A stretch of DNA of 64,000 bases, taken from NCBI GenBank assembly GCA_964653595.1, contig CAZZHH010000003.1:37957-101956 (forward strand), read 5' to 3'. The translations under genes were made by a program, and so were the position numbers. Numbering within the stretch: the stretch's first letter is position 1; each line of letters starts with the position of its first letter. The notes beneath the pieces were generated by a model, which had not been told where the DNA came from, did not search any database, and worked only from the letters and a program-made list of their open reading frames with translations. The DNA is from an uncultured Lentimicrobiaceae bacterium (GTDB lineage Bacteria > Bacteroidota > Bacteroidia > Bacteroidales > WCHB1-69). This document shows positions 43,303 through 60,249 of the stretch, one piece after another.

Positions 43303-43869
43303 TTATTTCGGTTCAGTAGATTCATACAGACATATCAAGGCAGCTTCGTATGCATTATGACTACATGTTAAAAAGTTTGTAATACAAAATTTATCATGTG
43401 TCCATACATTGTCCTCCGCATAATCTGCGAGCCCTTCAACAGCATAGTAAATAATGTCAAACGGATTATCTGGACAATCTGGATTGAGTTTCTTGGCAAT
43501 TGCACACCATGCGAAATATTGTTCTTCAGGCATTTCAATTTCAAACGCTTTGCCTGTAACAGTAGCAACATCAGGATCGGCAACTGTAAAATCGAGTTTC
43601 AGATTAGAACCTGTAAGCTCATTATATTTTTCGACAAAACTCTTAATCAGAATATTGGCACAAAATACGCCAAACTTATTGCCATCAAAATGATTCTCAA
43701 GAAAACGGCGGTGAAGCGTTGGAATTAAATTATAGTCTTCCATATCATGACTGCTATAACTTTCAACTTCACGGTCCATCATAATGTCACAAGGTTCTGT
43801 TTTTACATTGTACTTATACAGGTTGTTATAAAATAATACTTTGATTGTTTTATTAGTTGCTGTGTTCAT
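43303..43869 (-). CDS. Fam-A paralog (unknown function)
   Basis: IKVLFYNNLY...LTGSNLKLDFTVAD...FEIEMPEEQYFAWCAIA. Confidence 0.8.
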   Translation of the reverse strand: MNTATNKTIKVLFYNNLYKYNVKTEPCDIMMDREVESYSSHDMEDYNLIPTLHRRFLENHFDGNKFGVFCANILIKSFVEKYNELTGSNLKLDFTVADPDVATVTGKAFEIEMPEEQYFAWCAIAKKLNPDCPDNPFDIIYYAVEGLADYAEDNVWTHDKFCITNFLTCSHNAYEAALICLYESTEPK

Positions 43870-43990
43870 GTTTGATACCTTTCATTTATTTTGTTAATAC
43901 CTAATATACATAAGCAGGTACTTTATTCATCAATTTTGATTTTTTATTTCATGCGAAGCGTTTTTATTTATTACATATAAACACATTACA

Positions 43991-44006
43991 TTTTACGTGT
44001 GGTATA
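43991..44006 (+). repeat. 17-mer family, degenerate copy
   Basis: TTTTACGTGTGGTATA. Confidence 0.4.
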
Positions 44007-44042
44007 AGATAGAATATCTTGCACAAAATGCGAATGAGTTTT

Positions 44043-44064
44043 AGGGGAAGCCGAAACTTCCCCT
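44043..44064 (-). terminator. terminator after 44071..44601
   Basis: AGGGGAAG-loop-CTTCCCCT. Confidence 0.7.
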
Positions 44065-44070
44065 GTCAAT

Positions 44071-44601
44071 CTATTTCAATACTCCCCGATACTGTTCCAT
44101 TTCCTTATAGTAATCACATTCTACAATATGATACATATTTTGTTTGATAAACCCAAGGCAATTGTTTATATCATCATCACTTGCAAGGAATGCGAATATG
44201 TTCCCGTCCGTAGATTCATAATAGCGGCGGTCGTCTGCAAGGTCAAGGAATTCTTTATATACATCGCTGGGCATTTCAACAAGAAACATGTTCCCATTTA
44301 CATGGTGAATGTATTTGACAAATTGACAATTTTCACTTCGCAAATTATCCCCGAACAAACATTCAAAGTATTTAAACAGGAAATATTCGATTAACCTTTT
44401 GTAACTTTTCACATAATCTACTTTCTCCATCATGAAGTCATAGATATCCCCTGCAGGCTTCGTGATTCCGTACCGTTCGCATTCCGTACAAGCCCGACTA
44501 TACAGTTGTGACGTAATGTAATTTGTTGCGCCTTGATTCCTCGTATCTCGTGCGAAAAAGTCAGGGAAATAAACTTGTACTGTGTCTTTCGTGTTGCTCA
44601 T
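44071..44601 (-). CDS. Fam-A paralog (unknown function)
   Basis: Trimmed to ATG 44599-44601 (AAAGAGAGAAC SD); VQVYFPDFFARD...FLVEMPSDVYKEFLDLA; track N-terminus is read from the promoter. Confidence 0.75.
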   Translation of the reverse strand: MSNTKDTVQVYFPDFFARDTRNQGATNYITSQLYSRACTECERYGITKPAGDIYDFMMEKVDYVKSYKRLIEYFLFKYFECLFGDNLRSENCQFVKYIHHVNGNMFLVEMPSDVYKEFLDLADDRRYYESTDGNIFAFLASDDDINNCLGFIKQNMYHIVECDYYKEMEQYRGVLK

Positions 44602-44676
44602 GTTGTTCTCTCTTTCTTTGTGTGTCATATTATACAATTGGCATTCAGATTTATTCACAATATTTAAGAAAAGTTT

Positions 44677-44698
44677 GGGGATTCATTTCTGAATCCCC
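44677..44698 (-). terminator. terminator after 44708..45673
   Basis: GGGGATTCA-GAAA-TGAATCCCC (minus strand). Confidence 0.75.
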
Positions 44699-44707
44699 AT
44701 TCAGAGT

Positions 44708-45673
44708 TTAGGCTACCTGTTCGGTTTCTTGTTTAACTTCCTTGCCTTCCAGTTTGTTTGTGAGATACATAACGTTTTCACTGACACGTTTCATAAGTCT
44801 GCTGACTGCTTTCATAGCCGCTTCAGGTTCTTTATCGTTCCACGAAGTGATGTAATCAAGAACGCCGCTCAAGTCAACCTTATTTTCATAACCCAAGTAA
44901 GCCAACAGGACAGCCGAGCCGAATTCAGCAACCGTTTCACATGTTTTTCTGCATTCGATATCTTTGTGATAGTTTTTAACATGATTCGGATAATTCACTT
45001 CATCGGCGGCATGAATAAGCTCATGAGCGAACACGGTTTCTGTTTTGGCCTTCAGGTAAATAGCGTTAGCTTTTGCGCTATAACCGCCCCAAGCTTCGCC
45101 AAGGTTCCGTGCCGAAACAGTGATATTCAACAGCCTTGCAATTTCCAACAGCGGCGCAGTGTTTTCTCCGTTATAATACTGTTCTACAGATTCGTTCTCT
45201 TCAAGAGGTTTTCCATCCGTTTGAGATACGTCGAATTGCGGTGTAAGCGTGAAACGCATTCCCTTGACAACTTTTTCTTTTTCGCCGTTTTCGTTAATTT
45301 CTTCGTCCAAGATAGGAACAGGCTTAAAAACAAACAAGGCTTTTTCGCCGCTTTTCACATAACGTCCAGCTTTTTTCCATTCATTATAGTTTCTTGCGTC
45401 TGTTGCGCCTTGGGCAATAAGTAACAAGCGATTAAAAACGCTTAATTTATCTTGTGGAAGTTTGGCGATACGGAAAGTCTCATGACAAACACTTTTCACT
45501 AATGTACCATTTTCACACATTTCTTTTAACATGTTAAAAATCTTCGAAGCGCAACCTTGCATTCTAACGGCTTTATCTTCAGCGGCTTTCGGTGTAACGT
45601 TCCAACTTGTCTTGTTGTTATTCCAAGGCATTTTAACCGAATTGCGGTTGTTGCGGCTGTAACTGTTGTTCAT
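44708..45673 (-). CDS. ArdC-like anti-restriction protein (ssDNA-binding N-domain plus HExxH metallopeptidase-like domain)
   Basis: NRLLLIAQGATDARNYNEWKKAGRYVKSGEKALFVFKPV (ArdC-N pattern), VFAHELIHAADE (HExxH) and ETVAEFGSAVLLAYLG. Confidence 0.8.
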   Translation of the reverse strand: MNNSYSRNNRNSVKMPWNNNKTSWNVTPKAAEDKAVRMQGCASKIFNMLKEMCENGTLVKSVCHETFRIAKLPQDKLSVFNRLLLIAQGATDARNYNEWKKAGRYVKSGEKALFVFKPVPILDEEINENGEKEKVVKGMRFTLTPQFDVSQTDGKPLEENESVEQYYNGENTAPLLEIARLLNITVSARNLGEAWGGYSAKANAIYLKAKTETVFAHELIHAADEVNYPNHVKNYHKDIECRKTCETVAEFGSAVLLAYLGYENKVDLSGVLDYITSWNDKEPEAAMKAVSRLMKRVSENVMYLTNKLEGKEVKQETEQVA

Positions 45674-45798
45674 GTTTCTATTTCCCTTCGTTTTGTGTTT
45701 GCTATATATTACAATCGAGATGAGAATTTATTCACAAATTCAGAATTTTTTTCTTTTGTTTCTGCACTGCTTTGATTCTGTTCTCTCTTGTTTCGCCT

Positions 45799-45833
45799 AT
45801 ATATTACAACTCAAGCGGATATTTATTCATGAA
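45799..45833 (-). promoter_or_regulatory. orphan promoter module (no ORF behind it)
   Basis: ATGAATAAATATCCGCTTGAGTTGTAATATATAGG plus SD-like AAGAGAGAAC, then the next promoter (45704-45738) with no ATG between. Confidence 0.5.
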
Positions 45834-45869
45834 TTTTTAACATTTTTTATTCCATATAATAGTTTTACA

Positions 45870-45886
45870 TTTTACGTGGGGGGTAC
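45870..45886 (+). repeat. 17-mer copy
   Basis: TTTTACGTGGGGGGTAC; first of a tandem pair. Confidence 0.6.
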
Positions 45887-45891
45887 CCAAA

Positions 45892-45908
45892 TTTTACGTG
45901 GGGTACAG
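45892..45908 (+). repeat. 17-mer copy
   Basis: TTTTACGTGGGGTACAG. Confidence 0.7.
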
Positions 45909-45930
45909 GTTTTTTTCTGAATAAGAAATT

Positions 45931-45952
45931 GGGGATTCATTTCTGAATCCCC
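45931..45952 (-). terminator. terminator after 45959..46618
   Basis: GGGGATTCA-GAAA-TGAATCCCC. Confidence 0.75.
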
Positions 45953-45958
45953 GTTGTT

Positions 45959-46618
45959 TTACTTCACGATAATTTGAATTGGTTCATGATCCCAAAACTT
46001 ATGGCCTATTGTGAATAAGTCGTTTGCTGGGCAATGCGCTAATTTCATCATGATATTAAACAGGCTTTGCAAACAATCTCTATAAGAGCCTTCTTCACAA
46101 CCGTCGTATGCGAGTCCTGAAATAATTTCAACTTGTTCGGTAAAAACATCCAAGGCTTCCAAATAATGTTTAGTGTGCAAACCATAAGGGAATATGACTT
46201 TTGCTTTTTCACGAGATCCAATACTTATTTCAACGACGTGCGGTTTATTAAATTTGCCCACAATGTAGTTTTCAAGAACATCATCTTCTTTCATTGCTAT
46301 AGCTTCTGCGATAATCTGTATCAAATCTACATGGACAAATACATTTTGCGAAACAGCTTCACGAGAGCAGTTAAACTTTTTCATTGCTTCTTCAAAAATT
46401 CCCAACACGTGGTTTTCATCAATGCATATATCCGCAAGAGGTTGGGTTGATTCAGGTTTTTTATTTCCGTAAGTTATAACATACTTCAACGCCGTATAAA
46501 AATAAGGCAACATTTCATCATGATTAACTCTGTTAAAAATTTTTTCAGCGTCAATTTCAAATTCTCTCAAAAACTGCTCAAGTCTTGTTGTTCCTTCTTT
46601 GAATTCCTGAAGTATCAT
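45959..46618 (-). CDS. hypothetical protein (219 aa)
   Basis: Trimmed to ATG 46616-46618; the MKGIKKM prefix in the track is the SD read as codons. Confidence 0.75.
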   Translation of the reverse strand: MILQEFKEGTTRLEQFLREFEIDAEKIFNRVNHDEMLPYFYTALKYVITYGNKKPESTQPLADICIDENHVLGIFEEAMKKFNCSREAVSQNVFVHVDLIQIIAEAIAMKEDDVLENYIVGKFNKPHVVEISIGSREKAKVIFPYGLHTKHYLEALDVFTEQVEIISGLAYDGCEEGSYRDCLQSLFNIMMKLAHCPANDLFTIGHKFWDHEPIQIIVK

Positions 46619-46711
46619 TTTCTTAATTCCTTTCATTTGGTAATACTTAATACAATTGACGCTACATTTTATTCACTAATTGTTAATTTTTATCCCATGA
46701 ATTATACAGAA

Positions 46712-46729
46712 TTTTGCGTGGGGGTACAG
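46712..46729 (+). repeat. 17-mer copy
   Basis: TTTTGCGTGGGGGTACAG. Confidence 0.6.
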
Positions 46730-46756
46730 GATGTTCTGTTTTGCGTAATATGCTAA

Positions 46757-46783
46757 TAGGCGGGGAATTTTCACCCCCGCCTA
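46757..46783 (-). terminator. terminator ~85 nt after 46868..47158
   Basis: TAGGCGGGG-loop-CCCCGCCTA. Confidence 0.65.
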
Positions 46784-46867
46784 CAAAATTCACAAGTTTA
46801 GTTATATTTGTTACTTTTCACTAATCGTTTAAACACTCTTTAATTTGTCTATATTTAAACAAATTTT

Positions 46868-47158
46868 TCAGATTGTATCACTTTTGTTTTTTCTTTCTTC
46901 TATTTCATTTTTTAACGAAAACAATCGTACAATAGACTGAAGAGTTTGCCTTGCGTTTTTAACTGGTATTTGAGGAAGATATCCTATATTCATACGTTCT
47001 ACTGGTTCAAGGCAATAACTGTCACCTATTTTGACAATGACAAATTCTATACCGATAATTTTGTTTAATATTTTTATATATTCTTTTATCCAGAAATCAT
47101 CTTCCATTTCGTGTTTTTTCTTCATTTCTGCTTTTTGTCTTTTAAGGCTGTCGTCCAT
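46868..47158 (-). CDS. hypothetical protein (96 aa)
   Basis: Own promoter; GAAAGGTTTAG SD. Confidence 0.7.
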   Translation of the reverse strand: MDDSLKRQKAEMKKKHEMEDDFWIKEYIKILNKIIGIEFVIVKIGDSYCLEPVERMNIGYLPQIPVKNARQTLQSIVRLFSLKNEIEERKNKSDTI

Positions 47159-47233
47159 ATTTCTAAACCTTTCATTTTTGTGTTTGCTATATATTACAAT
47201 CGAACAGGTACTTTATTCACAAATTGTTATTTT

Positions 47234-47602
47234 TCATCTAATGTATTCTTCAGGGAAATATTTTCTTACACAATCTTGAGTAAATTTGTATTTTGTTTTT
47301 CCAACAATGGCAACGGTGTTTATTTGCGAATGTACAGCCTGTACGGCATTTGCAACACATGCGATACTGTCAGAACAAAAAGTGAACAACATGGCAATAT
47401 CCACAGGTGTTAAACGTTTTCCGTAAGAATCCGAAGCGTGTCTGTGACGGGTAACCAAATAATAAATGTGGTTTTCGAGAAATTTCTCAGCTTCGCCCTG
47501 TGTCATTCTTGAGAATGTTTCATGCATATTTTCATAGACTTTTGCCTCTGCTTCGTTTCGTACGGAAATTTCTTTCTGTACGCTTTCGAAAAATGTGTTC
47601 AT
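47234..47602 (-). CDS. Fam-J paralog (unknown function)
   Basis: YENMHETFSRMTQGEAEKFLENHIYYLVTRHR block identical in 53344..53706. Confidence 0.75.
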   Translation of the reverse strand: MNTFFESVQKEISVRNEAEAKVYENMHETFSRMTQGEAEKFLENHIYYLVTRHRHASDSYGKRLTPVDIAMLFTFCSDSIACVANAVQAVHSQINTVAIVGKTKYKFTQDCVRKYFPEEYIR

Positions 47603-47674
47603 GATTTTAAACCTTTCATCTTGTGAAGTTACTTATTATTACAATTAGTGCGGATATTTATTCATAAACTTTGA

Positions 47675-48220
47675 TTACTTTGTTGTGTTCAATGCGAATA
47701 TTTCTTTAAGTTCCGATAAAAGATTTATAACCACAGGAAATTCTATACCGTATTCTAAAGGCTGAAACAACTCCGAAATGCCTGTATCTTTATTTAACGC
47801 ACATTCAATAATATTATTTATTAAATATAATGTTATGGTTTGTTTTGATTCTTCAAATCCGTTTAATTCATCTAAATGCTGAAACAACGTTTGATAGTCG
47901 ATAATCCAAGGGGATTCAAGTACATTGCCCACAAAATCAGATTCATGTATATCCATGCCGTCATAATCATCTGGATTCCCTTCATAATCTTTGCAATGTT
48001 TTTCACTGATTTCTTTGAATTTTTTACAAATATCGGCTTTTTCTTCAGGTGTTCCTGTAACGTAATTTTGTTTCATGGATAAAATTTGGTTGCACAAACC
48101 TTCAGGCGTATTTTTATCTTCAAAAAACGCAAGCGCAAAGTTAACTACTTTCATTTCCAGTTTGTTTTGCCCTGTTAAAGCCAAGATATTACGAACATGC
48201 TGTTTCAATACCTGATTCAT
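47675..48220 (-). CDS. hypothetical protein (181 aa)
   Basis: Own promoter; AAAGGAAAT SD. Confidence 0.75.
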   Translation of the reverse strand: MNQVLKQHVRNILALTGQNKLEMKVVNFALAFFEDKNTPEGLCNQILSMKQNYVTGTPEEKADICKKFKEISEKHCKDYEGNPDDYDGMDIHESDFVGNVLESPWIIDYQTLFQHLDELNGFEESKQTITLYLINNIIECALNKDTGISELFQPLEYGIEFPVVINLLSELKEIFALNTTK

Positions 48221-48303
48221 TTTCTTATTTCCTTTGTGAATTTTTCTTGTTTCGTTATTGTATTACAATTGGTGCGGATATTTATTCATGAATTATTATC
48301 ATT

Positions 48304-48762
48304 TTATGCGAATGGAATGTTAAAGACTTTTCTAACTCCACTTAGAATTTTGTCCTGTGCCGCTATGGAATCCATATAATTTAACTTCATAAGTTCTAAT
48401 ACATGACTCACGTGCCAATGAGATATTTCAGAAATCAAAGAAACACTATCGTGCGTATCATGCGACTGAAGTACATTAATCAATATCTCAATAAAACATT
48501 TTTTAATTTTACGCTCTTCGGCGTCCATCATTTCTTTTAATTCCGCAAGAATATTTTTCATGCGGTTTTCAAACTCTGTAGCAATGACCGTATTTTCATC
48601 TTGTGCGAACGGTTTGCAAATCAAATACATATTTGCAAGTTTTCCGATTTTGTTTTGATTAGTGTAGATATCTCTTGCAATATAATATGCTTCAATTTCA
48701 TATTCAGGATGGTTAAACAATTCCCGCTTGAGTTTTTTATTCGCTTCACTCTGTGACTGCAT
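48304..48762 (-). CDS. Fam-K paralog (unknown function)
   Basis: Own promoter and SD; distant paralog of 52142..52618 (N-terminal ..EIEA....R......G......YL..K pattern). Confidence 0.75.
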   Translation of the reverse strand: MQSQSEANKKLKRELFNHPEYEIEAYYIARDIYTNQNKIGKLANMYLICKPFAQDENTVIATEFENRMKNILAELKEMMDAEERKIKKCFIEILINVLQSHDTHDSVSLISEISHWHVSHVLELMKLNYMDSIAAQDKILSGVRKVFNIPFA

Positions 48763-48865
48763 AATATTGATTTTCTTCCTTTCTTTCTTGTGTCACTATA
48801 TTACAGTTGAAGCAGTATTTTATTCACAAATTTTGAATATTTTTATTCCATGTAATTCATGGTCA

Positions 48866-48883
48866 TTTTACGTGGGGATACAT
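48866..48883 (+). repeat. 17-mer copy
   Basis: TTTTACGTGGGGATACAT. Confidence 0.6.
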
Positions 48884-48900
48884 AATTGCATGGAATGCGA

Positions 48901-48926
48901 ATAAGGGGAACTTTCGTTCCCCTTAT
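48901..48926 (-). terminator. terminator after 48928..49374
   Basis: 11-bp stem ATAAGGGGAAC/GTTCCCCTTAT, GAAA loop. Confidence 0.75.
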
Positions 48927-48927
48927 T

Positions 48928-49374
48928 TTATCGAATTTGCATCATTTGGTCAACAATTTTTTGTCGCTTTGCTACATTTGCATGAACCCCAAAACAAGAT
49001 TTTTTAATTGTTTCTTTCTGGTCATCTTCCATGAATTCCATACAAAGAGATATCAGTTTGTTTTCTGCGCTGTATAGCTTCTGCTTCTCGTCGTCCGAAT
49101 GAACATTATCGATCTCACGTTCCGTATCATTAACAGCCTGATTGAAAACATCTTCGTCTTCAATATCATCGAATCTTTCTGGAACGCTTCCATCGTCGTT
49201 TGTAATGCCTTTTTCTTTGATATACTTCACTTCAATCGCTATAACCTGTTGAGTCTTTTCTTTCCACTGTGTTTTAGCGGCATTGTATTCTTTTTGCGCC
49301 TGCAAAATATCAGGAAATACTTTATTAAATTTTTGTTTCATTTCTGGCGATAAATCTTTATCAAAAGTACTCAT
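48928..49374 (-). CDS. hypothetical protein (148 aa)
   Basis: Trimmed to ATG 49372-49374 behind TAAGGAAC SD; track N-terminus is read from the promoter. Confidence 0.7.
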   Translation of the reverse strand: MSTFDKDLSPEMKQKFNKVFPDILQAQKEYNAAKTQWKEKTQQVIAIEVKYIKEKGITNDDGSVPERFDDIEDEDVFNQAVNDTEREIDNVHSDDEKQKLYSAENKLISLCMEFMEDDQKETIKKSCFGVHANVAKRQKIVDQMMQIR

Positions 49375-50581: not shown

Positions 50582-50586
50582 AATTG

Positions 50587-51117
50587 CTATTCAATAGCTT
50601 TGTTAAACCTTTCATGAAAATTCATTCTGTACCATTCTTTCGAGCGATTCTTCATTATGTTAATACATTCATCATAAACATCATCAATAACGATTTTACA
50701 GGTTCCGAGCATTCCATTAATCTGAGGGTCTTCTTCATTGTCATAACTAAAATACCCGTCTTCATTCCAACTTTTTCTTGTCAGGTCTTCAAGATTCGAA
50801 TCTTCCATGTACTTTCTTTTATAGATTCGGTTCATTGACTTAAAAATCTGTTCCATTTTTTCCTCAGGGATATCCAAAACTCTAAAAATAATACCCTCAT
50901 AATCGGAGACTCGGATAATTTCATCGGTATCAAAATCGGCGTCTTCAAAGTCGGGTTGTGTTGGTTCGTAATCTTCATCATAATATTCGTCTCTCATGGC
51001 TTCGTTGACACAATCAAAGTTTTCAAACACGTCCTGAGCGGTATTTTCAATGTTTATATTATTATATACCATTGTAGTACCGTTTTCTTTATCAACTACA
51101 CATATAACTAAACTCAT
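50587..51117 (-). CDS. Fam-M paralog (acidic, unknown function)
   Basis: Trimmed to ATG 51115-51117 (GGAG SD); MSLVICVVDKENGTTMVYNN aligns with 55762..56259. Confidence 0.75.
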   Translation of the reverse strand: MSLVICVVDKENGTTMVYNNINIENTAQDVFENFDCVNEAMRDEYYDEDYEPTQPDFEDADFDTDEIIRVSDYEGIIFRVLDIPEEKMEQIFKSMNRIYKRKYMEDSNLEDLTRKSWNEDGYFSYDNEEDPQINGMLGTCKIVIDDVYDECINIMKNRSKEWYRMNFHERFNKAIE

Positions 51118-51159
51118 GGTTCGAACTCCGTTCATTTTATTTTGTTTCTTGTTTCGTAG

Positions 51160-51193
51160 TTATATTACAATTGAGTAGGTACTTTATTCAGAA
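51160..51193 (-). promoter_or_regulatory. promoter module for 50587..51117
   Basis: CTGAATAAAGTACCTACTCAATTGTAATATAAC; typical right-zone copy. Confidence 0.6.
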
Positions 51194-51248
51194 ATTCAGA
51201 ATCTTTTTTTTATAGGTATGTTTTTTAATTCCATATAATAGCTCTACA

Positions 51249-51265
51249 TTTTACGTGGGGTACAG
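51249..51265 (+). repeat. 17-mer copy
   Basis: TTTTACGTGGGGTACAG. Confidence 0.7.
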
Positions 51266-51290
51266 AAAAATTTTTCTGAATAAAAAAATT

Positions 51291-51312
51291 GGGGATTCAT
51301 TTCTGAATCCCC
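51291..51312 (-). terminator. terminator after 51321..51947
   Basis: GGGGATTCA-GAAA-TGAATCCCC; T-rich on both sides. Confidence 0.75.
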
Positions 51313-51320
51313 GTTATTTT

Positions 51321-51947
51321 TTAGTGATTGCGATATACTGTTAGTGATCTGCTTGACTCTTTTATCAATTTCACTTTTACATATTCCCCTCCAAAGTCGC
51401 TCCGATTAATATTTGTCAATGGTGTGTAAAATTCTATCCTATCAAATTTCACAGAATGAAAAGCCATATTGCCAATATTAGAGACGTTATATAGAATACT
51501 CTTAGCATTGTCGCCACAGTCTGTATTAAATTGATTAAAGCAATAACACGCATAGAATGCGAAGTCTCCAATAAATAACACGTTTGGACATTGAATCAGC
51601 GTCACAGAATAACATCCTGAAAAAGCCCCGTTACCAATATTTTTTACAGAAAAGCCGTTTCTAACTTCCAATAAATGTTTACATCCTGCGAATGCGAAGT
51701 CTTCAATGGAAACAACATTCGAGCCGATATAAATATTTGTTAACATCGATCCAGCGAATGCGGCATTTCCGATCTTCGTAACGGTGTAAATTTTATCTCG
51801 GTATTCAATTTTGTTAGGGATAGTAATTGTGTTACAAAATGCGCCACAATATTTATCATAAACAGGCGTACCGCCAACAACTTTAGCTTCCATAGCAATA
51901 TTAATAACATAATTAATGCCGTCAATTGTGACTTGTTCCGAATTCAT
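51321..51947 (-). CDS. BspA-type leucine-rich-repeat protein
   Basis: Trimmed to ATG 51945-51947 (GGAG SD); VTIDGINYVIN...KIGNAAFAGSMLTNIYIGSNVVSIEDFAFAGCKHL. Confidence 0.75.
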   Translation of the reverse strand: MNSEQVTIDGINYVINIAMEAKVVGGTPVYDKYCGAFCNTITIPNKIEYRDKIYTVTKIGNAAFAGSMLTNIYIGSNVVSIEDFAFAGCKHLLEVRNGFSVKNIGNGAFSGCYSVTLIQCPNVLFIGDFAFYACYCFNQFNTDCGDNAKSILYNVSNIGNMAFHSVKFDRIEFYTPLTNINRSDFGGEYVKVKLIKESSRSLTVYRNH

Positions 51948-52075
51948 TTTGTTACTCCATTCATTTTGTATTTTCTTGTTTCGCAATTATACTACAATTG
52001 AGTAGGTACTTTATTCATAAATTCTTAATTTTTTTCTTATAGGTATGTTTTTTAATTCCATATAATAGCTTTACA

Positions 52076-52092
52076 TTTTACGTGGGGTACAT
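52076..52092 (+). repeat. 17-mer copy
   Basis: TTTTACGTGGGGTACAT. Confidence 0.7.
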
Positions 52093-52111
52093 GTTTTGCA
52101 TGGAATGCGAA

Positions 52112-52135
52112 TAAGGGGAACTTTCGTTCCCCTTA
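52112..52135 (-). terminator. terminator after 52142..52618
   Basis: TAAGGGGAAC-GAAA-GTTCCCCTTA. Confidence 0.75.
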
Positions 52136-52141
52136 CATTTA

Positions 52142-53195: not shown

Positions 53196-53295
53196 ATTCT
53201 TTTTCCTTTATGGTTTATTTTTTTGTTTCGTAGTTATATTACAGTTGAAGCAGTATTTTATTCACAAATTCTTATTTTTTATTTTCAGAAAATCC

Positions 53296-53313
53296 CTGTA
53301 CCACACACAAAAT
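53296..53313 (-). repeat. 17-mer family, degenerate, opposite orientation
   Basis: + strand CTGTACCACACACAAAAT. Confidence 0.45.
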
Positions 53314-53318
53314 GAAAC

Positions 53319-53339
53319 TGGAGTCATTGCTGACTCCAG
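53319..53339 (-). terminator. terminator after 53344..53706
   Basis: CTGGAGTCA-GCAA-TGACTCCAG. Confidence 0.75.
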
Positions 53340-53343
53340 CATT

Positions 53344-53706
53344 TTATTTTTGTTCACAAGCGTGTTTTTCTGGGAAATATTTTCTTACGCAATCTTGAGT
53401 GAATTTGTATTTTGTTTTTCCGACAATGGCAACGGTGTTTATTTGCGGATGTACTGTTTGTATAGCCTTGGAGGCGGCTTGAATGGCGTTAGAACAAAAC
53501 ACAAATAACATAGCAATGCTCACGCCATAAGAATTAGAAGCATACCTGTGACGGGTAACCAAATAATAAATGTGGTTTTCAAGGAATTTCTCGGCTTCGC
53601 CTTGCGTCATACGTGAAAATGTTTCATGCATGTTTTCATAAATTTCTGTTTCTAATGCAATCTGTGCGGACTCTTGTTCCACAACTTCTTCAAAGAATGT
53701 ATTCAT
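53344..53706 (-). CDS. Fam-J paralog (unknown function)
   Basis: Trimmed to ATG 53704-53706; shares long identical blocks with 47234..47602. Confidence 0.75.
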   Translation of the reverse strand: MNTFFEEVVEQESAQIALETEIYENMHETFSRMTQGEAEKFLENHIYYLVTRHRYASNSYGVSIAMLFVFCSNAIQAASKAIQTVHPQINTVAIVGKTKYKFTQDCVRKYFPEKHACEQK

Positions 53707-53816
53707 GATTTTTCCTTTCATGTTTATTATGCACTACAATTGAAACAGTGCTTTATTCAGAAATTCTTAATTTTTATCATTTACGAATAAATTCCAGAAA
53801 AACGGTTTAAAAAATT

Positions 53817-54204: not shown

Positions 54205-54326
54205 GGTACATGACCTCATAAGGTAAAATGTGAACTGAATCGGTTTTCTGTTCGTTCGCAATTATAATACAAACGAGATGAAAGTTTATTCATAAAAGAT
54301 GAATTTTTTTTGCAGGTAGTCATTTT

Positions 54327-54344
54327 TTCTTGTCCACTGTACCC
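54327..54344 (-). repeat. 17-mer copy, opposite orientation
   Basis: + strand CTGTACCCCACGTAAAAT then TAAGTGAATAAAAA. Confidence 0.7.
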
Positions 54345-54370
54345 CACGTAAAATTAAGTGAATAAAAAAA

Positions 54371-54394
54371 ACTGGAGTCATTTCTGACTCCAGT
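54371..54394 (-). terminator. terminator after 54402..55073
   Basis: ACTGGAGTCA-GAAA-TGACTCCAGT then T8. Confidence 0.8.
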
Positions 54395-54401
54395 CCGTTG
54401 T

Positions 54402-55073
54402 TTAGTTACTTTTTACTTTCACCTCGTTTCTTGTAACTATTTGCATTTCGTCTTTGTATGTTCTACTAACTCTTGTGATGTGGTCAAAAATGCCGCCCTC
54501 GTAAAAGCCGCCGAATATACTATCGAGCTTAAACTTAGTTTTGATGTTACATAATATGATAGTGTCAAAACCTGTGTTATAAAACGCACGCACGCCTATG
54601 GATTTAACACAGTAAAGCGTTTTACATTTTTCTCCACCAAACCTGTGGTGTCCGAAATGGTCTAAGCTACAACAATCATAAAAGGCAAAATCACTTATTG
54701 TTTCAACTAAAGGGCAATCAATTGATGTAACACAACCACAACCCGCGAATGCGCCTGTGCCAATTACTCTTACTCTATCATACCCAACAACTTTACACAG
54801 ACTTGCACAACCCGCAAATGCGTAATTACCAATGGTTTCAATATTGCTTAAACGAACCGTGCGCACGTCGGAACCTGCAAATGCGCCATCTGCAATGTGT
54901 TTCACAGCGTATTTTTTGCCCTCATACTCGAATTCACAGGGAATTTCAATCTCGGCGGTGTTGTAATAATCGGACTTAATAACAGGCATTGAAAGAACTG
55001 TTGCTTCCATGCGATATGGATTCAGTTGAAACGATCCAGCAAATTCTGTTTTGACTGTGATATAGATAGACAT
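54402..55073 (-). CDS. BspA-type leucine-rich-repeat protein
   Basis: Trimmed to ATG 55071-55073 (AGGGG SD); HIADGAFAGSDVRTVRLSNIETIGNYAFAGCASL. Confidence 0.75.
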   Translation of the reverse strand: MSIYITVKTEFAGSFQLNPYRMEATVLSMPVIKSDYYNTAEIEIPCEFEYEGKKYAVKHIADGAFAGSDVRTVRLSNIETIGNYAFAGCASLCKVVGYDRVRVIGTGAFAGCGCVTSIDCPLVETISDFAFYDCCSLDHFGHHRFGGEKCKTLYCVKSIGVRAFYNTGFDTIILCNIKTKFKLDSIFGGFYEGGIFDHITRVSRTYKDEMQIVTRNEVKVKSN

Positions 55074-55198
55074 GGTATTACCCCTATAAGAATTTTTTAA
55101 CTTCACTACATAACTACAATCGAACAGGTACTTTATTCATAAAAGATGAATTTTTTTGCTTTATATGCGAATTGTTAATTCAAGAAAACCAGTTGTAT

Positions 55199-55215
55199 TT
55201 TTACGTGGGGTACAG
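55199..55215 (+). repeat. 17-mer copy
   Basis: TTTTACGTGGGGTACAG. Confidence 0.7.
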
Positions 55216-55237
55216 GGCAAAAAAATCGCCAAAAAAA

Positions 55238-55261
55238 ACTGGAGTCATTTCTGACTCCAGT
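55238..55261 (-). terminator. terminator after 55269..55574
   Basis: ACTGGAGTCA-GAAA-TGACTCCAGT then T8. Confidence 0.8.
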
Positions 55262-55268
55262 CTGTTTC

Positions 55269-55574
55269 TTAGTAGTTTGATTTGATTTTCCATTTGTTGC
55301 CTTCAGGAATTGTTACGTTTGAAGGCATGGCGATAGTATAAAACGTTCCATCGTCGCTTCTTGTGACTTCAGCATTATGATCGGTCAATCTATCATAAGC
55401 GACAAAAATAAAACAATTGTCGTTCATATCGTCCATCTCACTATCGTCAAAATTGTCCGATTGAAAAATGGAATTGCACAATGATTTTATTTCTTCACTT
55501 GCACAGCGCCAACCTTGCGAATCGCAACATGTTGCAATTCTTTTTCCGTCTTTAAAGTGAAACACTTCATTCAT
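55269..55574 (-). CDS. hypothetical protein (101 aa)
   Basis: GAGGT SD; own promoter and terminator. Confidence 0.7.
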   Translation of the reverse strand: MNEVFHFKDGKRIATCCDSQGWRCASEEIKSLCNSIFQSDNFDDSEMDDMNDNCFIFVAYDRLTDHNAEVTRSDDGTFYTIAMPSNVTIPEGNKWKIKSNY

Positions 55575-55687
55575 AATACAAACCTCATAGAGTTTATTTT
55601 GTTTCTTGTTTCGTAATCATAATACAATTAAGACGAAAGCTTATTCATAAATTTTTTAATATTTTTTATTCCAGAAAACCCGTTGCA

Positions 55688-55704
55688 TTTTACGTGGGGT
55701 ACAG
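55688..55704 (+). repeat. 17-mer copy
   Basis: TTTTACGTGGGGTACAG; starts a 46-nt block identical to 56358-56403. Confidence 0.7.
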
Positions 55705-55733
55705 GATATTCTATTTTGCGCAATATGCGAAAA

Positions 55734-55751
55734 GGGGAATTTGCATTCCCC
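55734..55751 (-). terminator. terminator after 55762..56259
   Basis: GGGGAAT-GCAA-ATTCCCC then TTTTCGCAT. Confidence 0.7.
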
Positions 55752-55761
55752 CGTTTGTTTA

Positions 55762-56259
55762 TTATCTCATAGAGTCCACAAGTTTCATTACGGCGGTATC
55801 GTACGACAATAAAGTTCTGTGTTCTTGAGGATCGAATAGGATTTTACAACCGTTAACAAATGTTTCAAGTTGCGAACAATCTTCTTCATTCCATCCGAAA
55901 TAATTGTCATTTTCCAAATCGTTCTTCTGTTCTTGCGTCATATGCGAAAATACTTCATCCGTCACTTCAATTAAGCGAACATGCATTCCAGCAAACGAAA
56001 CGGCTTCAGCAATTTCACTCGGTTCAAACTCATATTCGTCATTTACGGAAGAATGATAGGGTAAATGTTCAATCCCGCTACCACTTGCATAGTGGGGATT
56101 TTCTACCGTTAAATTATCAGACACTTCAGAATATTCTTCAGCTACCCAATTTAAAACGGAGTCAATAGTAATTTTTTCATAGCTTCCATCTTGCCACATC
56201 TTATTATAGGCAAGCAACATTCCGCCCGTGGAATCTTTCAAGTGAATCATTAAAGCCAT
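55762..56259 (-). CDS. Fam-M paralog (acidic, unknown function)
   Basis: Trimmed to ATG 56257-56259; MALMIHLKDSTGGMLLAYNK. Confidence 0.75.
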   Translation of the reverse strand: MALMIHLKDSTGGMLLAYNKMWQDGSYEKITIDSVLNWVAEEYSEVSDNLTVENPHYASGSGIEHLPYHSSVNDEYEFEPSEIAEAVSFAGMHVRLIEVTDEVFSHMTQEQKNDLENDNYFGWNEEDCSQLETFVNGCKILFDPQEHRTLLSYDTAVMKLVDSMR

Positions 56260-56357
56260 TTTTCTAATCCCTTTCATCTTTTGAAGTTACTTATATCTAC
56301 AATCAAGTGGAAACTTTATTCACAAATTGTTATTTTTATTCTATGAGTTTTATGGTA

Positions 56358-56374
56358 TTTTACGTGGGGTACAG
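56358..56374 (+). repeat. 17-mer copy
   Basis: TTTTACGTGGGGTACAG. Confidence 0.7.
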
Positions 56375-56402
56375 GATATTCTATTTTGCGCAATATGCGA
56401 AA

Positions 56403-56426
56403 AGGGGATTCATTTCTGAATCCCCT
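56403..56426 (-). terminator. terminator after 56431..57135
   Basis: AGGGGATTCA-GAAA-TGAATCCCCT then TTTCGCAT. Confidence 0.75.
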
Positions 56427-56430
56427 ATTT

Positions 56431-57135
56431 TTAAATCCAAGCTGGTTGTGTTTTTGTATCTGGCAAACTGAATAACCAATCAATAACATCTTGAGGAACC
56501 TGTGCAAACTTTTTCTCTACCCCGAATATATGCCCACAAACTGGACAAGGTTTTCTGCATAATCCATCTGGGTGGTCATCTTCACGAAGATACAAAAGTT
56601 TGCTTTTTTTCATAAATGGAATATCCTTTTTATAGAATTCACTAATAGATTCATCAAGTTCTTCCTTATCGCTTTCACGGATTAACCGCAATAACGGTAT
56701 AATATGCGCTTTTTCTGTAAGTTGGAAATAAGTATGATTCTTATCTATTTTATTAATTTTCTTTATAGCGTCAAAAATTTCAGACGCTTCTCTTGTAATA
56801 ACAAATTGATACACATCTACTTCTTTCCAACACTGCTCAGGCCAACCCAACTCTTTTTGGTGTTCGCAATATGTACGCCTGTGATTTAAATTCCATTCAT
56901 TCCAAATTTGAATTAATCTTTCAACTTTCTCTTGATTAAATCCATCATTAAAACATTTAACGTTATTAAGTAATGCATTTTGAATTTGGTCACGATGACC
57001 TGTACAGCGCCCAAAAATTCTCGGCCCCTCAACTCCAGTAATTGTTAATGCGCCTTGTTCGTCCAATTCAATTTTAACATAAACTTGCATTTCTGTATTA
57101 CTGCACTTTTCCAATGGATTGATAATTTTAATCAT
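56431..57135 (-). CDS. hypothetical protein (234 aa) with C-terminal CxxC
   Basis: Trimmed to ATG 57133-57135; CRKPCPVCGH near the C-terminus; no family recognised. Confidence 0.75.
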   Translation of the reverse strand: MIKIINPLEKCSNTEMQVYVKIELDEQGALTITGVEGPRIFGRCTGHRDQIQNALLNNVKCFNDGFNQEKVERLIQIWNEWNLNHRRTYCEHQKELGWPEQCWKEVDVYQFVITREASEIFDAIKKINKIDKNHTYFQLTEKAHIIPLLRLIRESDKEELDESISEFYKKDIPFMKKSKLLYLREDDHPDGLCRKPCPVCGHIFGVEKKFAQVPQDVIDWLFSLPDTKTQPAWI

Positions 57136-57221
57136 TACTGTACTCTCTTTCATTTTTAAGGTTACTTATTATTACAACCGAACAGAAATTTTATTCACAA
57201 ATTACTATTATATGCGAATAA

Positions 57222-57247
57222 GGGGGAATTCATTTCTGAATCCCCCC
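57222..57247 (-). terminator. terminator after 57256..57477
   Basis: GGGGGATTCA-GAAA-TGAATTCCCCC (one bulge). Confidence 0.7.
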
Positions 57248-57255
57248 ATTATGAA

Positions 57256-57477
57256 TTACTTGTGATTGATTTCATCAAGAATACGTGTCACTACATCCAA
57301 AGCATCACGCAATTGGCTTTTAGTCATTGATTTAGATAAATCCACAACACCGCCGCCATTAAGGTGCAGTTCAAGTTTATTTCCGTTTATGGTTTTCGTT
57401 ACTTCAAATTTGCCATGCGGCAATTCAGGCAAACGCCTCAAGCAAATTTCAATTTCTTTGTTTGTTGCTCTGTTCAT
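57256..57477 (-). CDS. Fam-L paralog (73 aa, unknown function)
   Basis: Aligns with 49491..49709; own promoter and terminator. Confidence 0.7.
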   Translation of the reverse strand: MNRATNKEIEICLRRLPELPHGKFEVTKTINGNKLELHLNGGGVVDLSKSMTKSQLRDALDVVTRILDEINHK

Positions 57478-57562
57478 GATAGGATTCCTTTCATCCTTTG
57501 AAGTTACTTATATCTACAATCGAGTAGAAACTTTATTCACAAATTGTTATTTTTTTATGGTA

Positions 57563-57579
57563 TTTTACGTGGGGTACAA
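57563..57579 (+). repeat. 17-mer copy
   Basis: TTTTACGTGGGGTACAA. Confidence 0.65.
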
Positions 57580-57655
57580 AATGCATTACAAAAAAAGGGG
57601 GATTCATTTCTGTTCATAATCCCTACCACTGTATAATGTCGGGAGTTTCCCGTGT

Positions 57656-57690
57656 TGTAATACAACTAAAGGGGGTATTTTTATCCACAA
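57656..57690 (-). promoter_or_regulatory. orphan promoter module (variant GTGGATAAA)
   Basis: Followed by a CGGG-loop-CCCG leader hairpin, an ATG with only 20 codons, and a degenerate terminator. Confidence 0.45.
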
Positions 57691-57722
57691 ATTGTTATTT
57701 TTATTTGGGAATTGTTCCGCCC

Positions 57723-57757
57723 CTCCCCATGTAAAATATTTCAACCCCACGCAAAAT
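57723..57757 (-). repeat. double half-site version, opposite orientation
   Basis: + strand CTCCCCATGTAAAATATTTCAACCCCACGCAAAAT; inverted relative to 58809-58842. Confidence 0.55.
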
Positions 57758-57780
57758 GAGGGATTTTTCAGAACAAAAAA

Positions 57781-57810
57781 ACAGGCGGGGAATTTTCATT
57801 CCCCGCCTGT
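57781..57810 (-). terminator. terminator after 57815..58615
   Basis: 13-bp stem ACAGGCGGGGAAT/ATTCCCCGCCTGT, GAAA loop, T7 tail. Confidence 0.8.
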
Positions 57811-57814
57811 GGTA

Positions 57815-58615
57815 TTAGCAACATTCCTCCAACATGTATAAAACATCTTTAGCGCCGAGAAGCCGTTTTTTCTTTTTATACACCTTAACTGTGATTGTCC
57901 CCTCGTTGTTGTCTTGAATTTTTACCCTCGTCACCAACTCACCACTGAATGCCTGACTGTGAATTTCTGGTTTTTCGCCATTATACTTAAATGTCAAATC
58001 GTCAAATCTTGTGTTACAAAATGCCGATTTCCCAATATGCTTCACGTTGAAAAACACGTGTTCCCAATCAAACAAAACAGAAGTATTCTCATAGACCTTG
58101 TTCAAACGTTCGCAATTATAAAAAGCATAATCCCCAATATCGACAACGCCATGAATGCAACATTGAGAAATATTACTTGACTCAAACGCAAATTTTCCAA
58201 TTCGTGTAACATGCGAGAAACAACTGTAAAAGCTAATCAGTTCTCTCGTGTATGCAAAAGCATGATCGCCAACATATTTCAAATTCGATCCGAATAACAC
58301 TCTTTTGAACATTGTGCCTGAAAATGCATAATCAGCTATAGCAGTAACTTTGATTTTTTCGCCGTCATACAGAACATCATTAGCTAATGATAATTCACCC
58401 TCAAAATTCCGAGCTTCAGGCATAACTCGATTGACTATCATCCCAAGGCACTTGGTTTCTTGATGGTCAAAATAATACTTTGCATATTCAATGCCATTAC
58501 AAATAACCGTTTTTTGGTCTACCTGATAGCACAAACCAAATAAAGAGTTTGAAATTCCGCAATTTCCAATATTACTATAAACAAACTCATTTGTATTCTT
58601 TGTTTCCGTAGTCAT
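57815..58615 (-). CDS. BspA-type leucine-rich-repeat protein
   Basis: AGGAG SD; AIADYAFSGTMFKRVLFGSNLKYVGDHAFAYTRELISF; unusually long structured leader. Confidence 0.8.
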   Translation of the reverse strand: MTTETKNTNEFVYSNIGNCGISNSLFGLCYQVDQKTVICNGIEYAKYYFDHQETKCLGMIVNRVMPEARNFEGELSLANDVLYDGEKIKVTAIADYAFSGTMFKRVLFGSNLKYVGDHAFAYTRELISFYSCFSHVTRIGKFAFESSNISQCCIHGVVDIGDYAFYNCERLNKVYENTSVLFDWEHVFFNVKHIGKSAFCNTRFDDLTFKYNGEKPEIHSQAFSGELVTRVKIQDNNEGTITVKVYKKKKRLLGAKDVLYMLEECC

Positions 58616-58808
58616 GATATGACTCTCCTATATATTATATGGTTTTTACACACAAGGAACGCCGCCCGTGGCGTTCCGATTCATTGAGATGTCAAAGAGC
58701 GGTGTTCCTTGTTGCGTAATATATCTACAGTTGAGTAGGCACTTTATTCATGAAAGATGAATTTTTTGTTATATGCAGTCTTTTTTTTATTCTATGAGTT
58801 TTGTGGAA

Positions 58809-58842
58809 TTTTGCGTGGGGGAGAGATATTTTACATGGGGAG
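58809..58842 (+). repeat. double half-site version
   Basis: TTTTGCGTGGGGGAGAGATATTTTACATGGGGAG. Confidence 0.55.
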
Positions 58843-58874
58843 GAAAATGTGGGATTCTTCAGAACAAAAAAAAT

Positions 58875-58900
58875 AGGGGGATTCATTTCTGAATCCCCCT
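58875..58900 (-). terminator. terminator after 58908..59774
   Basis: AGGGGGATTCA-GAAA-TGAATCCCCCT then T8. Confidence 0.8.
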
Positions 58901-58907
58901 ATGTTCA

Positions 58908-59774
58908 TTATGCTGGAATGGCTTCCTGTTCGGTTTTTCCCTCCAGTGCGTTCACAAGATACGTGACATTCTTTTCAACACGTTTAATTAGCCTACTAAC
59001 GGCAATAAGTGCCTGTTTAGGGGATTTATCGTTCCAACTGGTTAAATAGCTTAAAACGCCGTTTAAATCGCAATGGGATTCATAACCCAAGTAGGACATT
59101 AAAACCGCCGCCCCGAATTCTGCAACCGTCTCACACATTTGACGGCATTCCATATTATTATGATAATCCTCATTCTGTTTTTTGTAGTTGACGTAATCGG
59201 CGGCATGAATCAGTTCATGAGCGAAAACGGATTCATCTTTTGACTTCAAAGTGATTTTATTGCTCAATGCGTAATACCCGCCCAATGCACTTCCTGAATC
59301 TTCGGCAATCACTTTAATGTCAAGTTGTTTTGCAATTTCATACAAGGGGGCTTTATTCCCGCCCTCATAAAATGTTTCAATCATTTTTTCGGATTCAAGG
59401 GGTTCTCCGTCTGTTTGGGAAACGTCGAAACGGGGCGACAATGTAAAGCCTATGCATTTATTTTTATCGTCTTCGTTTTCATCTTTTTCTTTGATAATAA
59501 GGGGCTTGAAAATGAAGACGGCTTTTTCGCCGCCCTTGACAAACCGTTTAACTTTTTTCCATTCATTGTAAGTTCTTGCGTCCGTGGCGCCTTGTGCCAT
59601 TAAAAGCAGTTGATTAAAAACGCTTAACTTCGTTTGAGACAATCTTTTGACATTGAAAACTTCATGACGGACGTTAGAAACGAGGGTACCGTTTTCGCAC
59701 ATTGTTTTCATCATGTTAAAAAGTTTTGCGGCGCAATCTTGCATTCTGAATTCTTTTTCTTCCATTGTAGCCAT
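58908..59774 (-). CDS. ArdC-like anti-restriction protein (second copy)
   Basis: Trimmed to ATG 59772-59774 (AGGAG SD); NQLLLMAQGATDARTYNEWKKVKRFVKGGEKAVFIFKPL, VFAHELIHAADY, ETVAEFGAAVLMSYLG. Confidence 0.8.
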   Translation of the reverse strand: MATMEEKEFRMQDCAAKLFNMMKTMCENGTLVSNVRHEVFNVKRLSQTKLSVFNQLLLMAQGATDARTYNEWKKVKRFVKGGEKAVFIFKPLIIKEKDENEDDKNKCIGFTLSPRFDVSQTDGEPLESEKMIETFYEGGNKAPLYEIAKQLDIKVIAEDSGSALGGYYALSNKITLKSKDESVFAHELIHAADYVNYKKQNEDYHNNMECRQMCETVAEFGAAVLMSYLGYESHCDLNGVLSYLTSWNDKSPKQALIAVSRLIKRVEKNVTYLVNALEGKTEQEAIPA

Positions 59775-59911
59775 AGTCAAGCTCCTAAATGTATATTATC
59801 GGGTTTTTCCCGTGTTCGCAATTATATTACAACTGAAGGAGTATTTTTATTCACAAAAAATGAATCTTTTTTTTGTTATAGGTAATTTTTTTATAAATGA
59901 GTTTTGTGGAA

Positions 59912-59945
59912 TTTTACGTGGGGGAGAGATATTTTACATGGGGAG
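59912..59945 (+). repeat. double half-site version
   Basis: TTTTACGTGGGGGAGAGATATTTTACATGGGGAG. Confidence 0.55.
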
Positions 59946-59951
59946 GAATAA

Positions 59952-59971
59952 GGGGATTCATTCGAATCCCC
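59952..59971 (-). terminator. terminator after 59980..60249
   Basis: GGGGATTC-GAAT-GAATCCCC. Confidence 0.7.
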
Positions 59972-59979
59972 CAAATGAA

Positions 59980-60249
59980 TTAAATCTCCTTTGCAAGAAA
60001 TATGAATATGTCGTCGGGTCTTGAATCCGAGTCGGCATGATCGATTTTCAACGAATCATAAAGCGGGAAAACGCCATATGTGCGGCAACATTCTCGGCGC
60101 AATGTAAAACATTCAGGTTTCCATTCACCACATGTAAAAACATCACGTGACGGAATATGTAACGCCATAACACTCTGTGGCGAATGTTCAATTATTTTGT
60201 GAGCTTGTACAGCTGTCACTAAACTGCAACCGTGTCTATTGAATTCCAT
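59980..60249 (-). CDS. Fam-I paralog (unknown function)
   Basis: AGGAG SD; TCGEWKPECFTL block shared with 62827..63117. Confidence 0.65.
   Translation of the reverse strand: MEFNRHGCSLVTAVQAHKIIEHSPQSVMALHIPSRDVFTCGEWKPECFTLRRECCRTYGVFPLYDSLKIDHADSDSRPDDIFIFLAKEI

Follow-up and report, generated by a model that had tools for sequence, protein, structure and literature searches.

The closest described counterpart of the locus analyzed here is the hyperplastic region of T4-type phages, in which promoter-early stem-loop (PeSL) cassettes have been described (Arbiol et al. 2010, PMC2839356; Comeau et al. 2014, PMC4122927). In the PeSL model, composite promoter/stem-loop motifs bound the indels and replacements found between close relatives, and generate mini-circles (PMC2839356, PMC4122927). 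The idea of promoter-bounded shuffling thus goes back to the 2010 and 2014 papers on T4-type phages. What is new here is an instance in an unclassified lineage, with a putative promoter that is not of the sigma-70 type. The instance lies in a 64,000-nucleotide (nt) stretch, the window, of contig CAZZHH010000003.1, filed under an uncultured Lentimicrobiaceae bacterium; coordinates below are window positions. The element is probably a large virulent phage, and the window its accessory/early region. We regard it as likely that this region is a hyperplastic one made up of autonomous cassettes, which are exchanged by recombination at repeated promoter modules.

The array resembles a PeSL region as follows. 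Repeated composite intergenic motifs precede ORFans, i.e., open reading frames (ORFs) without known relatives. The motifs combine an A/T-rich tract with a bipartite promoter, putative in the array, and with a terminator stem-loop and a Shine-Dalgarno (SD) sequence. The motifs are concentrated in the variable region, and the indels and replacements between close genomes are bounded by them, here at 12 of 12 breakpoints. The proposal in both cases is that genes, together with their own regulatory sequences, are shuffled by recombination between motifs. The differences are as follows. The putative promoter of the array does not fit the sigma-70 consensus. Its terminator forms a hairpin of its own that lies upstream of the promoter, whereas the PeSL terminator usually overlaps the promoter, and this terminating stem-loop is found only at 38.6-63 kb. 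There is an extra 17-mer. With about 70 motifs over 52 kb, the array is of great length, and it runs strictly in one direction. Finally, the phage lineage is unclassified, and no T4 core genes were found in the window or in two related contigs (L005 and L012), where matches are limited to RNA ligase, NrdG-like and Lar proteins. The array indicates that promoter-bounded cassette shuffling is not restricted to T4-like coliphages and vibriophages, and its breakpoints are very clean.

Two other kinds of system invite comparison. The early regions of SPO1, T5 and T4 contain modules of host-takeover or early genes in which strong early promoters are numerous. Like the array, these modules have dense small early ORFans, each with a highly conserved strong promoter, and include anti-restriction functions; they differ in having been described mainly for their transcription, promoter-bounded exchange being documented chiefly in T4-like phages. 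The morons of lambdoid and other phages, reportedly described by Juhala et al. in 2000 and by Hendrix et al., each consist of one gene, equipped with a promoter and a terminator of its own, that some of a set of similar genomes have and others lack. One cassette of the array, LRRb, fits that definition. Morons are isolated insertions with diverse regulatory sequences, however, whereas here a single repeated regulatory family would be the recombination substrate.

Anatomy of the cassettes and spacers

The window contains about 105 non-overlapping ORFs, all on the minus strand and together covering 84% of it. The array itself is a same-strand series of about 95 small genes (11500-63300, minus strand), about 70 of which have a bipartite promoter-like motif upstream at fixed spacing. 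In summary form, the motif is an A-rich tract, TTTGTGAATAAA, 12 nt and TTGTA. Read on the minus strand, the full order ahead of the roughly 70 genes is aaaaaaatT.A.AAtTtgTGAATAAA, 12 variable nt, aaTTGTA.ta, a leader ending in GAAAGG, and the ATG. A loose version of the pattern has 72 matches on the minus strand versus 3 on the plus strand. The two-part geometry is like that of a sigma-factor promoter, which suggests that the motif is a putative promoter. A sigma-70 promoter was rejected, as a scan for TTGACA/TATAAT gave no more sites than expected (69 versus 71.9). The conserved motif could be put to practical use in amplifying cassettes of this kind from metagenomes and drawing up a catalogue of them.

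Two spacer architectures are found. At 12-38 kb, the spacers are about 50-110 nt long and contain the promoter only; terminator-like sites number 16 there, versus 10.0 expected. At 38.6-63 kb, the spacers are 100-340 nt long and have the order terminator hairpin, 17-mer, A-rich tract, promoter. This composite-spacer zone extends from 38594 to 62238, with an SD-like leader after the promoter and with the 17-mer, CTGTACCCCACGTAAAA, in both orientations. The hairpins have perfect GC stems followed by T-runs, and terminator-like hairpins at 43-61 kb number 41, versus 11.2 +/- 3.3 expected. The two architectures may represent different temporal or regulatory classes. The original prediction had given each cassette a promoter and a terminator of its own; the promoter part holds, as a promoter-like motif, at about 70 genes, the terminator part only at 38.6-63 kb.

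The core of the 17-mer occurs at 24 sites versus 0.27 expected, which makes it stand out as a highly enriched element of the array. The sites are in both orientations, are sometimes doubled, always lie between a terminator and the next promoter, and are confined to the terminator-containing zone; examples are 55688-55699, 56358-56369 and 60381/60432. Our default guess is that the 17-mer is a regulator-binding site. A search of the published literature with the motif sequences matched only unrelated papers.

Breakpoints between related contigs

Related contigs from other samples, designated by L numbers, were found by exact-protein look-ups and two homolog searches. Breakpoints were read off alignment ends; each is good to a few nt, and the two ends of a single replacement are not independent. 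The first case is the promoter of a 225-residue gene (46636-46690, minus strand). L001 (95.7% identical) and L003 (98.4%) match the window from 46675 downward, and their divergence from it sets in precisely at the TGAATAAA of promoter 46674. On the upstream side of this point, they have other genes, which in L001 are three cassettes whose products are 26-41% identical to those of window genes located elsewhere.

The second case is the LRRb cassette (54285-55160, minus strand), which includes a promoter core, leader, ORF, terminator and inverted 17-mer. The ORF (54402-55106) encodes a BspA-type leucine-rich-repeat (LRR) protein matching Pfam LRR_5. At the two ends of the cassette, at 55132-55160 and 54285-54313, are the copies of a 29-nt direct repeat, GCAAAAAAAATTCATCTTTTATGAATAAA, which spans the upstream tract and the -35-like element. 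In L010 (96.7% identical) and L012, contigs from separate studies, LRRb is missing and the junction is the same, with the crossover inside the 29-nt repeat.

L012, which is 94-97.5% identical to the window in shared segments, differs at several more places. Two adjacent cassettes on the minus strand (59873-61022), with genes at 60494-60922 and 59980-60249, have a single different LRR cassette in their place. Likewise, three minus-strand cassettes (56336-58781), namely LRRc, L2 and a 240-residue gene at 56431-57153, are represented by one different LRR cassette; the window arrangement of this segment is confirmed by the 100%-identical L018. The 87-nt promoter and leader of a 101-residue gene (55569-55655, minus strand) is duplicated in L012, and the copies flank an extra cassette of 137 residues. 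The slot of the window's LRRa gene is occupied by an unrelated gene, with the breakpoint at the start codon. Finally, an LRR cassette in reversed orientation, whose own promoter is reversed with it (L012:5945-6454, minus strand), sits between promoters that are adjacent in the window (about 63189-63250). It is the sole opposite-strand cassette seen.

All 12 breakpoint coordinates fall between +34 and -77 nt from the -35-like element, a span made up of the A-rich tract, the promoter, the leader and the start codon; ORF bodies and terminators contain none of them. The promoter module accounts for 14% of the 43.0-63.3 kb region and for 54% of its intergenic DNA. The clustering has a P of about 6e-10 if breakpoints are taken to be uniform over the region, and of about 1e-3 if uniform over its intergenic DNA. 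Cassette gain, loss and swap at conserved spacers had been predicted from the window alone, and the indels and replacements in L001/L003, L010 and L012 bear this out: in this region, the relatives are not collinear with the window, and no breakpoint lies outside a spacer.

Clustering of this kind might also arise if breaks were illegitimate and random and only those intergenic junctions that keep a promoter survived selection. With intergenic DNA at just 24% of the region, some filtering for viability is to be expected. Further, selection against breakpoints within ORFs would by itself enrich intergenic junctions, and two junctions are at start codons, outside the promoter core; these two points weigh against recombination at the promoters. 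The resolvable junctions, however, lie inside tracts common to both parents, i.e., the 29-nt repeat, the 87-nt repeat and the TGAATAAA element. Moreover, the part of the spacers that holds the terminator and 17-mer, 46% of the intergenic DNA, contains no junction. Filtered random breakage is thus very improbable, and exchange at promoter modules remains the favored reading.

It must also be asked whether the window, or its relatives, could owe their arrangement to false joins at the promoter and terminator blocks, which are repeats of 50-120 nt. Short-read contigs from the strain of the window do stop within repeats: L002 ends in a 46-nt repeated block, and L018 ends in a 52-nt block and a double 17-mer. 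The relatives were assembled from metagenomes and could themselves be chimeras of strains, fused at repeats, a point that counts against the exchange reading as well. Independent contigs that are 100% identical to the window are L002 (42537-47471), L019 (47447-48826), L016 (48896-51007) and L018 (56379-58843). They reproduce 42.5-51.0 and 56.4-58.8 kb, many spacers included, so misassembly is unlikely there; no such contig spans 51.0-56.4 kb or extends past 58.8 kb. The LRRb junction, on the other hand, is common to L010 and L012, which come from separate projects, and L001 and L003 share theirs. In addition, the variable cassettes hold genes that are missing from the window, which mis-joining could not produce. 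An artefact of assembly is therefore an extremely improbable source of these differences.

The original prediction called the array conceptually integron-like. Integrons are also one-orientation arrays of single-gene cassettes with content that varies between relatives. The comparison fails, however, in several respects. No integrase, recombinase or transposase family matches any of the 105 window ORFs at E<=1e-4, and there is thus no IntI among them. No attC or attI was recognized, although no formal attC model was run; instead, the crossovers are at A-rich/TGAATAAA promoter sequence or at start codons. Almost every gene has its own promoter motif, in contrast to promoterless cassettes served by a common Pc. 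The mechanism here is most likely homologous and not site-specific. The integron was therefore rejected: an integrase is absent from the window ORFs, the crossovers are in promoters rather than at hairpin sites, and the cassettes are not promoterless. A shufflon or other invertible system does not fit either, as all window genes are on one strand, there are no inverted repeats (E<1e-10), and no recombinase is matched.

A more general form of the idea is that a recombinase encoded outside the window acts on the 17-mer CTGTACCCCACGTAAAA, or on the hairpins, as a dedicated integron- or shufflon-like system. The strong excess of the 17-mer, its restriction to the variable zone, its two orientations and its presence in nearly every composite spacer are in keeping with this proposal. 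Inverted 17-mers bracket the cassettes LRRb (54342-55210), LRRc (57725-58840) and, in L012, LRR212 (L012:10548-11430), whose LRR genes are only 30-40% identical. One mosaic spacer within the window changes partner near a 17-mer, and one cassette is inverted in L012. Against these observations stand the missing recombinase and the single orientation of all window genes. Furthermore, the 12-38 kb segment has tandem paralogs and shared promoters without any 17-mer. Between strains, homology passes through the 17-mer and ends 20-35 nt beyond it, in the A-rich tract or -35-like element, the other breakpoints being at start codons. It follows that the 17-mer is not the crossover site in the observed cases. 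A dedicated site-specific system is accordingly quite unlikely. A related possibility, suggested by the limitation of the 17-mer to the most variable zone, is that it is a site where a phage factor targets or stimulates recombination, e.g., a nuclease- or recombinase-directed hotspot beside each promoter. We consider this unlikely too; if true, cassette exchange would be dedicated and self-regulating, and not passive homologous recombination at promoters.

Mosaic spacers and paralog order

Spacer modules within the window are shared independently of the genes they flank, as the original prediction held. An exact 46-nt block that runs from the -35-like element to the leader (41457-41502, minus strand) is repeated at 42521-42566, ahead of non-homologous ORFs. 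A second block (55687-55738, minus strand), consisting of a terminator tail and a 17-mer, recurs at 56357-56408 behind unrelated genes. It had been reported as 46 nt, and in fact extends to 52 nt. The 22-nt terminator GGGGATTCA-GAAA-TGAATCCCC is exact at five sites, which agrees with the proposal that identical terminators follow unrelated genes. Three of the sites follow genes that are unrelated to one another and to the ArdC-like genes, and the other two follow ArdC-like paralogs. A leader said to be shared by the 54402 and 60494 genes is shared in part: the full 29 nt occur exactly once, and an 18-mer is common to the copy at 60.9 kb. The promoter-leaders of these two genes are 84% identical at variable positions.

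To put these identities on a common scale, the 12-nt spacer and the first 20 nt of the leader were compared across 62 promoters. The mean identity is 41.5% (standard deviation 12%). Twenty-six promoter pairs are at least 78% identical at these otherwise variable positions, and in 20 of the 26, the flanking genes are non-homologous. Since the positions vary freely elsewhere, this pair-specific identity points to common descent by recombination or conversion and not to convergence. Mosaic spacers lead in the same direction. In spacer 51987-52141, the terminator half is as in 48763-48927, and the 17-mer-promoter half as in 51136-51320; the promoter of spacer 48763-48927, in turn, is identical to that of spacer 53196-53343. 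Within one spacer, then, the best partner of the terminator half is not that of the promoter half.

The 12-40 kb segment has many tandem paralog pairs, which fit unequal crossing-over between promoter repeats. The tandem genes 20225-20788 and 20849-21403 encode proteins that are 39% identical, and their promoter-leaders are identical over 53 nt, which suggests homogenisation or replacement of the promoter. Behind promoter 42565, which shares 46 nt with the promoter of gene 40682-41446, are two overlapping short ORFs of 54 and 57 residues (42269-42509), probably a frameshifted cassette remnant.

Gene families also recur, and in a different order. Paralogy was assessed by an all-versus-all BLASTP of the window ORFs and by pairwise comparisons. 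J1 (47234-47602, minus strand, as are all genes of this paragraph) and J2 (53344-53721) are 72% identical in amino acids (E 5e-62); orthologs of J2 in L010, L011 and L012 are about 97% identical. The J1/J2 DNA homology extends from the ribosome-binding site to the stop codon only, and the promoters, leaders and 3' flanks differ. L1 (49491-49709), a 72-residue protein with a weak helix-turn-helix match, is a paralog of L2 (57256-57477; 38%, E 8e-13), which is absent from L012. M1 (50587-51135) and M2 (55762-56277) are distant paralogs (23%, pairwise E 9e-7). The BspA-type genes LRRa (51321-51986, its true ATG probably near 51947), LRRb and LRRc (57815-58615), all matching Pfam LRR_5, share 32-44% identity and belong to a nine-member family with six other members elsewhere in the window. 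ArdC-like paralog 1 (44708-45673) has a weak match to Pfam ArdcN and one to phrog_7245, and its exact protein is found in four other contigs, two of them with a different upstream neighbor. ArdC-like paralog 2 (58908-59780) is 59% identical to it in amino acids. The two genes are about 66% identical in nucleotides, yet the same exact 22-nt terminator follows both.

In the direction of transcription, with x for other genes, the order is ArdC2-LRR-L2-x-M2-x-LRR-x-J2-x-K2-LRR-M1-x-L1-x-K1-x-J1-x-x-ArdC1, which is non-collinear. Thus the claim of families duplicated in shuffled order stands for J, L, M, LRR and ArdC. The K pair that completed the five families said to occur twice (48304 and 52142) drops out: it is marginal, with 31% identity over 42 residues and a pairwise E of 2e-4, under the all-versus-all threshold. 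That no single en-bloc duplication produced the pattern is confirmed, as DNA-level self-comparison finds no homologous segment longer than one ORF and no inverted repeats within the window at E<1e-10. The spread of divergence, from 23 to 72% amino acid identity, likewise argues against one duplication event.

The same divergence could be read as a sign of a static array, in which the paralogs are ancient (23-72% identical), purifying selection alone keeps the spacers identical, and cassettes do not recombine. It is plausible that the promoter, terminator and 17-mer have functions and are under constraint. Further, the 1-15 kb segment is 99.95-100% identical and collinear in five contigs, except for one divergent end in L006. 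On the other side, strains that are 94-98% identical show at least seven cassette events in about 20 kb. The 12-nt spacer and leader are free to vary over the 62 promoters, yet are identical in pairs with unrelated genes. With L001, L010 and L012 already contradicting it, a static array is very unlikely.

The divergent end of L006 is of a different kind from the junctions described above, and lies outside the region they concern. L006 is 99.95% identical to the window from 15383 to 5530 and then diverges inside an ORF (window 5259-5783; L006:9622-10185). About 77 N-terminal residues are common and the C-terminus is different; the breakpoint is thus within a gene.

We suggest the following course of events for recombination at promoter modules. 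Each gene is an autonomous cassette, with a strong conserved putative promoter, an SD-like leader and, from 38.6 kb onward, a 17-mer and an intrinsic terminator as well. The substrate of homologous recombination by phage or host enzymes, both within a genome and between co-infecting relatives, would be the module of A-rich tract, promoter and leader, about 60-110 nt present as some 70 direct repeats. Cassettes between two repeats would be deleted or duplicated, cassettes would be replaced by divergent ones from co-infecting relatives, and promoters would be grafted onto unrelated genes. Over time, paralog order would be scrambled while the strand of every gene is kept. Direct repeats would give deletion, duplication and excision/re-insertion but never inversion, and the uniform strand of the array fits such repeats. 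The order swaps L-M to M-L and J-K to K-J could be produced by circular intermediates, with a two-cassette circle re-inserting via its internal promoter, by unequal crossing-over, or by a tandem duplication whose outer copies are then lost.

Three further points weigh against this proposal. The motif taken to be a promoter does not match TTGACA/TATAAT. The paralogs are old, with amino acid identities of 23-72%, and their shuffled order may date from the distant past. Finally, the strain-variable cassettes are just 27-41% identical to window genes; what is seen is therefore exchange with a wider gene pool and not movement within this genome. The predicted growth and reshuffling of the array is thus supported as exchange between strains, and not as recent movement within one genome.

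Gene content and nature of the element

Neither Pfam nor PHROG gives a match for most of the 105 ORFs. Family scans of all of them find nine LRR_5 (BspA-type) proteins, two ArdC-like anti-restriction proteins, and single matches to RNA ligase, a NrdG-like radical-SAM protein, Lar restriction alleviation protein, an ankyrin protein and a hexapeptide transferase. The cassette genes include those for the ArdC-like, Lar (anti-restriction), BspA-LRR and ankyrin proteins, which makes it probable that the array serves as a rapidly renewed stock of genes for counter-defence and host takeover. The J family forms four clusters among 5.8 billion proteins, and in the same set a 181-residue protein (47675-48220) is found in its own cluster only. 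Both are extreme ORFans. In L005 and L012, Pfam and PHROG scans of the genes that flank the window-related part give only a Lar-like match and one more LRR_5 protein.

The phage assignment is based on gene content, on the strict one-directional packing of ORFans, and on a source contig of 103,198 nt. Several results speak against it. Phage identity is supported by few family matches, and most proteins match nothing. A megablast of the region against the phage collection gave no relative. By tblastn against that collection, proteins of 385 and 457 residues were unmatched, and the ArdC-like protein gave only matches of about 30%. A search of IMG/VR for loci related to that of the ArdC-like protein found none. 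The terminator 22-mer had no match in IMG/VR, in the JGI metagenome contigs or in the GTDB genomes; L001 does hold the 22-mer pattern, but its sample lies outside the searched collection. P0007, a candidate relative with a 36% ArdC-like match, was set aside, as it sits in an unrelated bacterial context.

As to the host, a Bacteroidota-type -33/-7 promoter was rejected by inspection. SD usage, judged from leader sequences, speaks against a member of the Bacteroidota as host, even though BspA-LRR genes are present. Strong GAAAGG SD-like leaders precede 69 of the 105 genes. The stop codons are TAA in 72 genes, TGA in 22 and TAG in 11. The GC content of the window is about 0.35, and neither tRNAs nor Rfam families were found in it. 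The BspA-LRR genes include one, at 36276-37475, that encodes 399 residues and consists of 13 tandem repeats of 69 nt (23 residues), which are 65-85% identical.

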